Below, piece after piece: positions 30,199 to 35,264 of a stretch of 49,859 bases of DNA. The DNA comes from Patescibacteria group bacterium (GTDB lineage Bacteria; Patescibacteriota; Minisyncoccia; Phycocordibacterales; UBA9973), in the NCBI GenBank assembly GCA_018816985.1, contig JAHIVA010000003.1, positions 1 to 49,859 of the forward strand, in the 5' to 3' direction. The first letter of the stretch is position 1; each line of letters opens with the position of its first letter. A model generated the notes under the pieces. The model was not told where the DNA came from, searched no databases, and saw only the letters and a list, made by a program, of their open reading frames with translations. A program made the position numbers and the translations under genes.

Positions 30199-30232
30199 TT
30201 TGATATTGTACACTAAAATATGCTATTATCAA

Positions 30233-31483
30233 ATGGTGCAATTTAAAAATAAAACTTTTATCGGTGCCTTGGCGGTCGTGGTGGCCGCTTTGTTTTGGAG
30301 CTTAGATGGGACTTTTTTGCGTCCGCATCTTTCATCTGTTTCCCCTACCCTAGTGGTATTTTTAGAACATAGCTTAGGATTCATTATTCTCTGGCCATTT
30401 TTATTTATTTATCGAGCAGAATTAAAAAAGATTACCAAAAAACAATGGGGGACGATTTTTTGGGTGGCTTTATTCGGCGGAGCGTTGGGTACTACTTTTT
30501 TCACTAAAGCACTATTTTTAACCGGTTTTGTGGATGTCTCAGTGGTTATTCTTTTGCAAAAGTTTCAACCGATTTTTGCTATCTTATTATCGGCTATTAT
30601 TTTAAAAGAACGCTTCCCTCTTAAATTTTATATCTATGCCACTTTGGCTTTAATTGGCGGATATTTTGTAACCTTCAAAGACCCAAGTTCCATAAATTTT
30701 GGTAGCGCTACATTTATGATAGCCGTTTTTTCTTTACTAGCTGCTTTCTCTTGGGGGTCATCAACTACTTTTGGAAAATATTCTTTAAAAAATATTAACT
30801 ACGGCTTGCTTTCTGCTCTACGGTTTGGTTTTACTGTACTCATTATGTTGATTCCGGCCATAAGATATTTTTCAACCTTGTCGTCAATTGAATCAAGTGT
30901 CTGGAAAACTTTAATTATCATAGTCTTCACTTCTGGGGCTATGGCTATGTATTTTTATTATTATGGTTTAAAAAAAATTCCAGCTTCACTGGCAACTTTA
31001 TGCGAATTGGCTTGGCCAGTCTCGGCAGTTATTTTTGATTATTTTTTCAATCACAATATCCTATCATCCACTCAAATTATTGGCGCAGTCGTTTTGATTA
31101 TAACGGTTTCTTTAGCCACTCGTCTGAATAAAACAAAAATCATCAGTGGAGTAGTTTTAGCTGGTAAAAATAATAGTGAAAAAACAGGCGCCAGAACGGC
31201 AAACTTAGACATTTCTTTAGCTAAAAACCTTGCCAAGGGACTCTACTCCTGTAAGGTTGATTTGAACGGTATAGTTTACCGAGGACTTTTATATTATGGA
31301 TTTAACTCACTAATTAATAAAGATTCTCTAGAAGTTCATCTTCTCGAATTTAATGGAAATCTTTATGGTAAAAATATTACCGCTGTCACGGAGAGATACT
31401 TGCGTTTTCCCAAGAAATTCAAAAGTGTAGAAAAATTAAGCAAACAAATTAAAAAAGATTTAGCTCAATCGTTTAACGAGTAA
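30233..31483 (+). CDS. EamA/DMT transporter fused to a C-terminal riboflavin kinase-like domain
   Basis: About 300 aa with 10 TMs (LQKFQPIF, ILKER), then GVV..G..RTANL, GLY, EVHLLEFNGNLYG, YLR..KKF..L..QI..D. Confidence 0.88.
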   Translation: MVQFKNKTFIGALAVVVAALFWSLDGTFLRPHLSSVSPTLVVFLEHSLGFIILWPFLFIYRAELKKITKKQWGTIFWVALFGGALGTTFFTKALFLTGFVDVSVVILLQKFQPIFAILLSAIILKERFPLKFYIYATLALIGGYFVTFKDPSSINFGSATFMIAVFSLLAAFSWGSSTTFGKYSLKNINYGLLSALRFGFTVLIMLIPAIRYFSTLSSIESSVWKTLIIIVFTSGAMAMYFYYYGLKKIPASLATLCELAWPVSAVIFDYFFNHNILSSTQIIGAVVLIITVSLATRLNKTKIISGVVLAGKNNSEKTGARTANLDISLAKNLAKGLYSCKVDLNGIVYRGLLYYGFNSLINKDSLEVHLLEFNGNLYGKNITAVTERYLRFPKKFKSVEKLSKQIKKDLAQSFNE

Positions 31484-32838: not shown

Positions 32839-33828
32839 TCATATTTCCAGAAATAATTTTCTCATGTGACCTTCAGTATGAATAAGAGTAATAACATCAG
32901 CAATAAGGTCTGCCGGACTAATTACCACAAGATTCTTGTGCCATTTTTCTTTATTAATGAGAGGGACGGTTTCTAAAATATAAATCTTATCAATTACTCC
33001 ATTTTCTAGCAGAGGATTAATACGATTAAATGTATTCATAGAAAAATCGTTGTGAACTACAAAAAAAGTAATTTTTTTGGCACCATTATATTTAGCAATC
33101 TTTGCGCCTGCCTCTAAAGTTCCTCCCTCTTGAAGCATATCATCAAAAGAAGCAACTCTATGTCCTTTTACATTTCCAACAATACTTGATTTTTCAATAC
33201 TCACTAGTCGAGTGGCTGGGTCTCTGTCTTTGATAATAAAGGAAACTTTTTTATCAAGCATTTCGGCAATTTTTTTATTCCTCTTAAAACCACCATCATC
33301 CAGAGCCAGAACACTGTCATATAATTTACTATTTTTCATCACATATTCAATGAGTATCTTCATTAAATATACGTGATGCACCGTGCGAAGACGATAGTGT
33401 CTAGTGTCATAGAAACTTGGATGTTGCCCTGAATGTTGGTCGAATATTGTGATTATTTCCACTCCAGAACTGGAAATTTCCATAGCGGTGTCTTTATAAG
33501 CTACGTTTTCTCCAAATCGTTTGATATGATCAGATTTTCCATCTCTAACAAATGGAAATACTCCGAAAATTCTGTTGGCTCCCTTGATTGATTTGCAAAT
33601 CAATCTCAGCTCTTTCATTGTGTCATAATTAGCGTGTAGTGAACTAAAAACACATATATCTTTTCCGCTTACATCGCACAATCTTCTTACGTCCAATTCT
33701 CCATTGGGAAACAACTTGGATTCAATTTCAAGCGGAGTTACTTTGAGCTTTTTTGCTATTTCTTTTCCTAACGATGGATGAGAATTAGCGATAATCAAAC
33801 CGAATTCCCCGAATCTACTTTTTTTCAT
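32839..33828 (-). CDS. prs: Ribose-phosphate diphosphokinase family protein (divergent)
   Basis: ANSHPSL, FPNGE, DQH, DDGG, VGNVKG, FDDMLQEGGT. Confidence 0.78.
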   Translation of the reverse strand: MKKSRFGEFGLIIANSHPSLGKEIAKKLKVTPLEIESKLFPNGELDVRRLCDVSGKDICVFSSLHANYDTMKELRLICKSIKGANRIFGVFPFVRDGKSDHIKRFGENVAYKDTAMEISSSGVEIITIFDQHSGQHPSFYDTRHYRLRTVHHVYLMKILIEYVMKNSKLYDSVLALDDGGFKRNKKIAEMLDKKVSFIIKDRDPATRLVSIEKSSIVGNVKGHRVASFDDMLQEGGTLEAGAKIAKYNGAKKITFFVVHNDFSMNTFNRINPLLENGVIDKIYILETVPLINKEKWHKNLVVISPADLIADVITLIHTEGHMRKLFLEI

Positions 33829-33847
33829 AGTAAATGTATTTTATCAC

Positions 33848-33894
33848 AAAAAAAACAAAAACCAGCAACATTTCTCCTTTCGGTGTTACTGGTT
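33848..33894 (-). terminator. Intrinsic terminator
   Basis: AACCAGTAACA-loop-TGTTGCTGGTT followed by a long U-tract on the minus strand. Confidence 0.8.
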
Positions 33895-34078
33895 GATTAT
33901 GAGAAGTTTGGCCTTCTCGTTGCCTGCTCGGAGGGCGCCGAGCTCGCTTAACACCATGGGTCTAATTCCCAAGCTACTTTGATGATGAAATCACCCCCTT
34001 TCTTCACTAAAGAACAAAAATCAGCGCTTGTGCGCTGTTTGGTAGATTCCTTTTTTTATAAAACAGAGAAGAAAGAAA

Positions 34079-34156
34079 TCAATTAAATAGCGCAAAAGCT
34101 AAAACTTTTGTGCTAAACCAATAATTCAATGTTGTTATTGTATAATTTCGTTTCAT
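34079..34156 (-). CDS. Putative 25-aa leader peptide
   Basis: MKRNYTITTLNYWFSTKVLAFALFN just downstream of a promoter. Confidence 0.4.
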   Translation of the reverse strand: MKRNYTITTLNYWFSTKVLAFALFN

Positions 34157-34170
34157 AACCTTATATCCAA

Positions 34171-34199
34171 ACATTAACAAACTAAAAAAAATAAAGCAA
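34171..34199 (-). promoter_or_regulatory. Sigma70-type promoter
   Basis: TTGCTT-17 nt-TAATGT with TGn extension. Confidence 0.5.
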
Positions 34200-34200
34200 A

Positions 34201-35151
34201 TTAATATATATTCACTCCGATTTTTTCCCGTACTTCTTCCATTTTTTTTGCCGCAACAATTTTTGCCTGTTCACTTCCCTTTTTTAAAATCAAGAGGACA
34301 GTGGGAATATCTTTAGCAAATTCTTTTCTCTTTTCTCGCAAGGGCGCGATAAACTTTTCTAAATCTTCTATTAGTAATTCTTTTAATTCTTTATATTTTC
34401 CCGCCTTGCTCTCATAAAGAGACAGAAGCTCCGAAGCTGGACGAAGCAAATTATGGATTGCATAAACATTCTTAGGGATTCCTTCACCTGAATCCGTGAC
34501 TATACTCATTACACATTTTTTTATTTCTTCATATTCAGCAAAAAGCGGAATCGTGTTATTGTAACTCTTGCTCATTTTTTTGCCATCCGTACCGGGTACC
34601 ACAGCGACATCTTTTAAAATCATCGGATTCGGAAGTTTAAATGTTTCCCCATAAGTATTATTAAATTTTTCCGCTATATCCCGAGCTATTTCTACATGTT
34701 GTTTTTGATCAGCTCCTACCGGCACCATATCTGGACCATAAAGCAGAATATCAGCCGCCATCAAAACAGGATAATTAAAAGTACCAACATCAATTTCTTT
34801 ATTCTTCGCCTGTGCATCTTTAAAAGCATGAGCGCGCATCAAAAATGGCATTGTGGTAATGGTATCAAAAATCCAAGCCAGTTCAGTGTGTTCACTAATA
34901 TCACTTTGTTTAAAAAATATAACTTTTTTGGGGTCTAAGCCAATGGCTAAATAATCAAGCAATACATTCTTGATGTTTTCGTTCATTTCTCTAGAATTTC
35001 GCAACGAATGTAAAGCATGGTAATCAGCAATAAAAACATAGCCTTCGTGCTCTTTTTGTAAATCTACGAATTGCTTCATTGCCCCAAAATAATTACCAAG
35101 GTGAGGCTTTCCGGAAGGCTGAACTCCCGATAAAAATATTTTTTTCGACAT
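34201..35151 (-). CDS. trpS: Tryptophan-tRNA ligase
   Basis: SGVQPSG, HLGN, YPVLMAADIL, VGADQ, KMSKS; start at MSKKIF. Confidence 0.97.
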   Translation of the reverse strand: MSKKIFLSGVQPSGKPHLGNYFGAMKQFVDLQKEHEGYVFIADYHALHSLRNSREMNENIKNVLLDYLAIGLDPKKVIFFKQSDISEHTELAWIFDTITTMPFLMRAHAFKDAQAKNKEIDVGTFNYPVLMAADILLYGPDMVPVGADQKQHVEIARDIAEKFNNTYGETFKLPNPMILKDVAVVPGTDGKKMSKSYNNTIPLFAEYEEIKKCVMSIVTDSGEGIPKNVYAIHNLLRPASELLSLYESKAGKYKELKELLIEDLEKFIAPLREKRKEFAKDIPTVLLILKKGSEQAKIVAAKKMEEVREKIGVNIY

Positions 35152-35264
35152 ATTTAATATATTACCATATTTAATTACTTCAGCACAGCAATTTTCCACA
35201 TGTTTAATAACATTTTACCGATTTTTAGGCTTTGACAATCATTTTACTATGCTAGAATGGCAGA

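Follow-up and report, generated by a model that had tools for sequence, protein, structure and literature searches.

Ribosome-mediated tryptophan attenuation combines a short leader open reading frame (ORF) carrying one or more Trp codons with mutually exclusive RNA helices and an intrinsic terminator, as outlined in parts of PMC6614838. The same parts describe rnTrpL of Sinorhizobium meliloti, a small RNA (sRNA) of 110 nt that is derived from the trpL-trpE(G) attenuator. We analyzed a region of a 49,859-nt stretch of Patescibacteria DNA, referred to here as the window. The region (33848-34199, minus strand) is flanked by trpS (34201-35199) on one side and by a divergent prs-like gene (32839-33828) on the other, and aspS comes after prs. 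The genome, G000, is a 1.02-Mb assembly of 136 contigs with 8% contamination. The unit in this region is real and has three separable modules, at 34199-34008, 34000-33948, and 33947-33848. With its conserved leader ORF, which contains a single Trp codon, and with three helices that exclude each other, the region likely encodes a ribosome-sensed Trp attenuator, and the first module is very probably such an attenuator of known logic that has been orphaned from the trp genes.

Like the Escherichia coli trp operon (trpL plus the TrpR operator; Rfam Trp_leader), the window unit has a leader Trp codon, exclusive helices, and an intrinsic terminator. In relatives, the likeness extends to trpR, to an operator-like CTAG repeat over the promoter, and to trpE, trpC, or trpBA downstream. 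Unlike the E. coli operon, the window unit has no Rfam match, a single Trp codon, and a leader stop codon inside segment 2. The stem of its antiterminator is long and interrupted, its terminator tail overlaps a boxA-like motif, and its cargo is a micro-ORF, with trp genes and trpR not found in G000. The features of the attenuator and its upstream gene are as follows.

34201..35199, minus strand: trpS, tryptophanyl-tRNA synthetase, upstream context (Pfam PF00579, E 2.6e-64)
34171..34199, minus strand: predicted sigma-70 promoter (-35 TTGCTT, 17 nt, extended -10 TG-n-TAATGT)
34079..34156, minus strand: leader peptide MKRNYTITTLNYWFSTKVLAFALFN, 25 codons, from ATG at 34156 to TGA at 34081-34079
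34088..34115, minus strand: helix 1:2, protector/pause hairpin (-10.7 kcal/mol, z -3.55)
34027..34098, minus strand: helix 2:3, antiterminator, exclusive with 1:2 and 3:4
34009..34037, minus strand: helix 3:4, attenuator terminator CAGCGC-ACAA-GCGCTG plus U-rich tail, with covariation
34008..34016, minus strand: boxA-like motif TGTTCTTTA, overlapping the terminator tail

The original prediction had listed a promoter, a 25-codon ORF, a series of hairpins, a boxA-like motif, and a terminator on the minus strand, and when checked against the sequence all of them were present at their coordinates. The ORF has the predicted 25 codons, and its Trp13 codon at 34120-34118 had been overlooked, as had the long 2:3 antiterminator at 34098-34027. 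The name trpS was assigned from likeness and context; PF00579 covers both Trp and Tyr synthetases. The predicted promoter, with its -35 box at 34199-34194, 17-nt spacer, and TG-n-TAATGT at 34176-34171, is a weak match that was not listed by a consensus scan; a similar arrangement is found in relatives. It lacks a TrpR-operator-like CTAG repeat, and no trpR lies between trpS and the leader in G000. In trpR-containing loci such as L054, L057, L114, and L116, the operator end and the leader ATG overlap, the ATG being about 7 nt past the -10 box, and these leader peptides look leaderless, with translation from the first base.

The distribution of the attenuator was determined with a search pattern from segments 2 and 3 that contained no Trp codon. 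Across 185,579 genomes, this pattern found 23 loci, 17 of which were intergenic and Patescibacteria-type (9 "Ca. Nomurabacteria," 4 Saccharibacteria, 2 "Patescibacteria group," 1 Minisyncoccia, and 1 "bacterium"). These titles suggest a Nomurabacteria-like genus. In each of the 17, segment 2 is preceded at a distance of 20 to 36 nt by the one or two Trp codons of a leader. We discarded the other six loci, which fall within coding sequence of unrelated taxa. The window leader has one Trp codon, and 12 of the 17 pattern-found relatives have WW. Leaders of relatives aligning with the 5' part include MKKGFRTMTVSYWWSAKTLMRFSVDF. Model R1 was built from the 17 loci and the window (18 sequences) and matched 52 of 150 genus genomes, a count that includes the unpublished genome G084 and is partly circular because the model holds the Trp-codon and boxA columns and many of its training sequences are among its own matches. 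Across the order, R1 matched 0 of 150 genomes. The analyzed set comprised 52 loci from 49 genomes, window included, after G084, three weak matches failing 1e-5, and opposite-strand echoes were left out. TGG occurred in the leader frame of 51 of 51 complete homologs, compared with 9 and 6 in the other two frames, although the 51 of 51 is partly circular in that R1 includes the Trp-codon columns.

All three helices covary. The alignment held 49 sequences, with three lower-scoring loci left out, and was fitted to helix 2:3 only. The shuffle control ignores kinship, and related sequences are not independent. In helix 2:3, 95.8% of cells were paired, two-sided changes occurred in 8 of 19 pairs, and none of 500 shuffles reached the score. 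In helix 1:2, 88.4% were paired, with two-sided changes in 5 of 9 pairs and 2 of 500 shuffles reaching the score. Helix 3:4 was 88.2% paired and had two-sided changes in 5 of 7 pairs (45 cells), with 0 of 500 shuffles as high. In the window, the hairpin at 34037-34022 folds at -10.4 kcal/mol (z -3.59) and the antiterminator stretch at 34101-34030 at -15.3 kcal/mol (z -3.34). The multi-hairpin folding proposed earlier for the region was confirmed, with z -4.90 for the whole and 0 of 100 shuffles equally stable; its separate hairpins reached z -3.3 to -5.2 against shuffles.

We then have the switch itself, as computed by folding with parts of the RNA blocked. With a ribosome-sized block reaching to the stop codon, the terminator won in 49 of 50 loci, and with a block to Trp+12, the antiterminator won in 32 of 50. 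In the window, P(terminator) was 1.0 with the stop block and P(antiterminator) was 0.82 with the block to Trp+12. The unblocked window RNA favored the antiterminator in one folding (P 0.70) and helices 1:2 and 3:4 in a longer fold. Because the full equilibrium switch, with both blocks, held in 31 of 50 loci only, window included, kinetics must be assumed. The predicted contribution of a leader peptide to control was supported in the form of Trp attenuation, on the basis of in-frame Trp codons, covarying exclusive helices, and gene context. Anatomy, conservation, covariation, and gene context are observed, and from them we infer transcription and switching.

We propose the following mechanism. 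When charged tRNA-Trp is plentiful, the ribosome would get to the leader stop codon, and because this stop lies inside segment 2, helix 3:4 would form and an RNA of about 150 nt would be released. When charged tRNA-Trp is scarce, a ribosome halted at Trp13 would cover segment 1, and helix 2:3 would form before segment 4 is made, giving an RNA of about 310 nt. This read-through RNA would carry only an 11-codon Trp micro-ORF and a trailer with a predicted double pseudoknot, followed by a second terminator. In relatives, the same switch heads a variable cargo slot behind trpS-trpR, with trp genes in some. In G000, trpR and the trp genes appear to be missing, and the slot holds the micro-ORF alone.

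By tblastn, trpR lies upstream in 41 of the 52 loci, and an operator-like CTAG repeat was present in 36 of the 41 loci with trpR versus 1 of the 11 without it. In relatives, the attenuator is found after trpR and before trpE, trpC, or trpBA. Pfam-confirmed trp genes lie downstream in 4 of 52 loci, with trpE in L067 and L107, an IGPS-like gene and then trpE in L064, and trpB-trpA in L101, and not in G000. In another genome (G013), the 5' part lies between trpR and trpE. The other downstream genes encode a racemase, PPDK_N proteins, a histidine phosphatase, and proteins without an assigned role, or there are small ORFs alone; 46 of the 120 listed downstream proteins were scanned with Pfam. Searches of G000 for trpR, trpE, and trpA gave no match, and the absence of these genes is not proven, because the assembly is fragmented and partly contaminated.

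The first cargo place behind the Trp attenuator is taken in several genomes by a recurring protein of 343 to 369 amino acids with no Pfam match (L062:433-1461, L085:1682-2788, L109:1799-2842, L111:1695-2756, and L042). PPDK_N proteins (L080 and L084) and proteins of 427 to 493 amino acids without a known role (L081 and L104) also occupy it. Other leader-peptide attenuators were seen in the same slot near trpS, with the leaders MNLLVKFSVNYYTCPIGRSSFC (Tyr-Tyr), MKSNINNSSFFYFSFWTNGSRADFCYC, and MNNKFLQINNWQYFFSPSNRKLLFVL (aromatic rich), each followed by a hairpin and a U-tract (L018:1300-1520 in G026, L129/L137 in G076 and G080, L165 in G095, and L166 in G113). The genus seems to hold several unrelated amino acid attenuator families. 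No description of such attenuators or micro-ORFs in Patescibacteria emerged from a literature search, mostly of openly accessible main texts, and passages of PMC12577380 contain nothing on them either.

The boxA-like motif of the original prediction is present at 34016-34008 and is conserved. In 40 of the 52 loci, the tail of the terminator contains GTTCTT[TC], compared with a mean of 1.6 and a maximum of 6 in shuffles and with 1 of 30 control terminators; the 40 of 52 is partly circular, as the boxA columns are part of R1. The boxA consensus of E. coli is UGCUCUUUAACA and that of Bacillus subtilis is AUGAUCUUUGAAA, as given in part of PMC13753749. Similar to the boxA/NusB-S10 systems of rrn, suhB, and CRISPR leaders, the loci have the motif UGUUCUUU(G/A), and nusB is present in G000. 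Unlike in those systems, the motif of the window is part of the tail of an attenuator terminator, and a search of G000 did not find rho. The strict motif was present in 0 of 29 16S leaders of the genus, some of which carry a related TTCTTTGA(C/A)AA core. This relaxed core, TTCTTT[AG]A, was chosen post hoc and occurred in 13 of 29 16S leaders versus 2.3 in shuffles; the window's copy lacks its last A. Antitermination control through boxA is plausible and unproven. The motif may load NusB/S10, and would do so on read-through transcripts only; Nus binding is a prediction, as are the pseudoknot folding and every micro-ORF function discussed below.

The presence of nusB and of a boxA-like motif bears on the relation of the unit to prs, for which two further features are needed.

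33828..33846, minus strand: extended -10 box and near-leaderless prs start, read from the sequence, with predicted activity
32839..33828, minus strand: divergent prs-like gene (Pfam PF13793, E 2.6e-12; PF14572; PF00156)

The unit had been offered as a possible attenuator for prs. Under this explanation, Trp shortage and Nus antitermination would let RNA polymerase pass both terminators into prs and so supply PRPP for Trp synthesis. Besides the boxA-like motif and nusB, it has in its favor that several relatives (L073, L086, L110, L114, and L120) have prs downstream of the unit and that the end of the micro-ORF can form an 8-bp pairing with the left arm of the terminator in the window (by eye). 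However, prs has its own -10 box past the terminator, as originally noted (TG-A-TAAAAT at 33843-33838, 9 nt before the ATG at 33828). The gene downstream of the unit varies, being aspS or another gene in most loci. In two relatives (G076 and G080), the gap between trpS and prs contains a unit that shares the micro-ORF and trailer and points away from prs; it sits under a different, Phe/Tyr/Trp-rich leader. The sole prs homolog found by BLAST in 60 relatives (L026, G021) has no unit upstream, no Trp biosynthesis was found in G000, and the final terminator forms in the free fold. Given its own -10 box and the inverted unit in two relatives, control of prs is very unlikely. The window also contains, at 30200-31483 on the minus strand, a 427-amino-acid ORF in which a membrane-transporter-like N-terminal part appears to be joined to a C-terminal part (by eye). 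The latter resembles a separate riboflavin-kinase-like gene of 106 to 114 amino acids that follows aspS in relatives.

The second module, at 34000-33948, contains a strong Shine-Dalgarno (SD) sequence and a small reading frame.

33990..34000, minus strand: strong SD sequence AAGGGGGTGAT (duplex of -17.3 kcal/mol with a generic anti-SD tail)
33948..33983, minus strand: micro-ORF IKVAWELDPWC, 11 codons, ATC start, TAA stop

The original prediction had overlooked both and had recorded in this span only a hairpin at 33971-33957. That hairpin is present as a 4-bp stem inside the micro-ORF, and its recurrence was not seen in homologs (by eye). The Trp codons of the micro-ORF lie at 33971-33969 and 33956-33954. 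A second in-frame ATC is at 33986, and an in-frame GTG at 34006 has no SD. Similar micro-ORFs ending in Trp...Trp-x-stop are present at the trp locus of about 20 relatives. The 900 nt downstream of each of the 52 attenuators contain, in total, 27 short ATG or GTG ORFs with a strong SD, and 12 of these 27 encode at least two Trp residues (for example, MLWDPEWC, MLWDDWWP, and MAWSSDDDWWF); genome-wide in G000, 2 of 92 strong-SD short ORFs do so. When 12 hand-picked peptides (window plus 11) were aligned, W10 was invariant and W5 nearly so.

Model R3, built from 10 micro-ORFs of the commoner subtype, matched 17 of 150 genus genomes and, across the order, 0 of 150. Four of five strong matches outside the training set encode at least two Trp residues, three of them directly behind trpS/trpR in genomes without an R1 match (G142, G071, and G095). 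Also among the matches outside training are one degenerate copy and one at a contig start elsewhere. The window micro-ORF gave no match to R3 (E 8) and belongs to another subtype. G076 (MMPLGWDIEEWY), G080 (TTG start, one Trp), and G162 (MAWSIDDEEWS) share its arrangement of micro-ORF and trailer and contain the nearest counterparts of the entire 3' half. A metagenome pattern for the micro-ORF gave four matches, all unrelated. Stop-codon read-through of the micro-ORF was considered and dropped, since the downstream frame is not conserved. In the commoner subtype, a GGGCC...GGCCC stem follows the stop codon, with loop bases complementary to the 3' flank (by eye; GCGG/CCGC, GCGT/ACGC, ACGAT/ATCGT, and GAAGG/CTTTC; L073, L076, L079, L082, L083, L089, L091, L099, L103, and L059).

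The ATC of the window corresponds to ATG in relatives; the window copy may therefore be weak, decaying, or misassembled, and its start codon likely makes it weak or decaying. This raises the possibility that the whole unit is a vestige in G000, where the attenuator would still switch, the cargo would be lost, and the micro-ORF would be a dead copy. Such an explanation fits the ATC start, the failure of R3 to recognize the window micro-ORF, the lack of matches to trpR, trpE, and trpA in G000, and the high variability of the cargo between attenuator and terminator in relatives. However, all three helices and the terminator are intact, as are the SD, the stop codon, both Trp codons, and both pseudoknots, and in relatives with ATG the micro-ORF is likewise retained, as the only cargo or the final one (L099, L070, L163, and L164). 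We consider a vestige possible but doubtful.

For the micro-ORF, our best guess is that its translation itself, and not a folded product, would be the point. A strongly initiated minigene with Trp codons, made only in Trp shortage, would hold ribosomes at UGG codons. A rival concerns this last step only and accepts the attenuator as described, with the micro-peptide as the functional product: an acidic, Trp-rich peptide that would bind a protein or act as a signal once Trp returns, with TrpRS, TrpR, or a host receptor as candidate partners. The W-[DEN]...W-x-stop arrangement with its acidic linker is kept over variable lengths, the SD sites are very strong, and the DWW endings resemble those of streptococcal XIP pheromones, which have double-Trp endings such as GLDWWSL (part of PMC5131902). 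Against such a product, the length ranges from 3 residues (MWW, L168) to 14, degenerate copies (L166) and non-ATG starts (window, L137, and L079) occur, and no shared receptor, exporter, or modifying enzyme was noticed among the genes at these loci. ComS/XIP and the micro-peptides share a small ORF and an acidic residue before a Trp-Trp close to the C terminus. Unlike ComS, the micro-ORF has no N-terminal export segment, its control is Trp linked, and the loci show no comR neighbor, the upstream genes being trpS, trpR, or cargo ORFs. The likeness is probably convergent, and a functional peptide is an unlikely, if possible, outcome.

We tentatively suggest, at less than even chances, that one Patescibacteria genus keeps Trp-starvation micro-genes on pseudoknot-protected mini-mRNAs, perhaps as a new starvation signal. 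As read here, the family would comprise ORFs of 8 to 14 codons with W-[DE]...W-x-stop at the trp locus. Their control would fall to a TrpR operator, to a Trp attenuator, or to leaders with other aromatic residues, and they would be kept even after all trp biosynthesis genes are lost. If this is true, a peptide or stalled translation would be a new kind of amino acid starvation signal in a host-dependent bacterium. If functional, the micro-ORF would also offer a small, synthesizable handle on the sensing of Trp shortage in a bacterium that takes Trp from outside. The switch itself is textbook; it occurs in a lineage usually described as poor in regulation, and the genes it normally controls were not found in G000. 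The conserved Trp micro-ORF family and the genus-wide tandem-pseudoknot 3' trailer were found in neither Rfam nor the literature searched. The attenuator, the boxA-like motif, and the trailer mark a variable cargo slot and therefore point to Trp-responsive genes that lack annotation in roughly one-third of genus genomes.

The third module is the 3' trailer, which has the following features.

33926..33947, minus strand: predicted H-type pseudoknot 1 (GCG/CGC plus GCTCGG/CCGAGC), beginning at the first base past the stop codon
33901..33924, minus strand: predicted H-type pseudoknot 2 (GGC/GCC plus GAGAAG/CTTCTC)
33848..33894, minus strand: intrinsic terminator of a dispersed family, top GAAAGGAG (-14.4 kcal/mol, z -5.24)

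The hairpins recorded earlier at 33943-33926 and 33918-33901 are present, not as plain hairpins but as the long stems of the two predicted pseudoknots, both of which show compensatory changes. With the long stems picked blind to the short helix, the short helix of pseudoknot 1 could pair in 8 of 19 loci (permuted mean, 2.4; 4 of 5,000 permutations as high) and that of pseudoknot 2 in 13 of 25 (permuted mean, 3.1; 0 of 5,000 as high). The partners vary by locus (GGC/GCC, GAT/ATC, CAGG/CCTG, and GGG/CCC). H-type geometry upstream of the terminator was found in 19 of 30 loci versus 0 to 6 in shuffles; two such pseudoknots lie in tandem in the window. The 3' part at 33950-33852 has z -5.06, and 0 of 200 shuffles were equally stable.

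The terminator is as strong as had been supposed, and it had two-sided changes in 10 of 13 pairs among the top 30 loci. Model R2, made from this last hairpin, matched 80 of 150 genus genomes at E<=0.01, a count that includes the unpublished genome G146 and in which weak matches may be generic terminators. Across the order, matches were weak (E 4e-6 to 9e-5) and occurred in 10 of 150 genomes. The view of the unit as self-contained from promoter to terminator was supported, in that 10 of the 30 top trailer loci have an R1 attenuator 0.1 to 2.8 kb upstream, in the same orientation, so that the same terminator family ends the unit. Others end unrelated units. The trailer is preceded by many kinds of ORF, trpE and a trpG-like gene among them, whether at trp or at non-trp loci, and is therefore a general 3' end for cargo units; our guess is that it protects the RNA from 3' decay. 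Two other roles were considered and dropped. The terminator top GAAAGGAG as an SD for an 18-codon ORF fails in L030 and L037, where the ATG is not kept. A tymovirus-like tRNA mimic is expected to have NCCA right after the pseudoknot, and homologs have no NCCA directly past pseudoknot 2.

In tmRNA, a short reading frame and a stop codon are followed by tandem pseudoknots. The unit resembles tmRNA in this order of parts only. Unlike tmRNA, it has no tRNA-like domain (ARAGORN and Rfam were negative), its micro-ORF has its own SD and start, and its trailer is also found behind ordinary genes. None of the 136 contigs of G000 gave a tmRNA with ARAGORN. The inability to match the unit to a known RNA, reported at the outset, was confirmed: Rfam at the gathering threshold was negative for the window and 13 homologous loci, and ARAGORN found no tRNA or tmRNA. 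An Rfam E-value scan gave subthreshold matches only, among them mir-4679 (31 bits versus 88), which is merely the 2:3 stem and was rejected.

The interpretation of the unit as one undescribed sRNA was not supported, because its three modules occur independently of each other in relatives. In a BLAST search of 60 relatives, matches fell on two separate parts of the gap. A related explanation is that the released or read-through RNA acts in trans like rnTrpL, or that the trailer is a processed structural RNA. S. meliloti offers a precedent for an attenuator-derived sRNA, of a size similar to that predicted here (PMC6614838), the sequence of segments 2 and 3 is strongly conserved, and the read-through RNA would be mostly structure. 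The three-way pairing and the leader coding already explain the conserved segments, however, and the trailer follows many different ORFs. Unlike in S. meliloti, no trpDC-like target genes were seen in G000, where trpE and trpA were searched for and missing. An RNA acting in trans, or a processed trailer RNA, is improbable. RNA contigs from three runs of one study cover only the trpS end and the promoter (34164-34340 and two short trpS pieces) and give no evidence either way on the unit; one groundwater metatranscriptome contained 0.12 of the sequence words. No second copy of the region, of R1, or of R2 was found in G000. The trailer and attenuator patterns matched 0 viral contigs, so a phage origin is unsupported.

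Three loci with the same trailer (L030, L034, and L038, in G005, G011, and G010) have a gene for a protein of 220 to 240 amino acids with no Pfam match and the N terminus MIKIQPIVR.... The gene is divergent from an inverted-repeat promoter that heads cargo units with this trailer. In G011, the promoter block of this unit is repeated, and dapF is next. The protein may be an unrecognized amino acid regulator.
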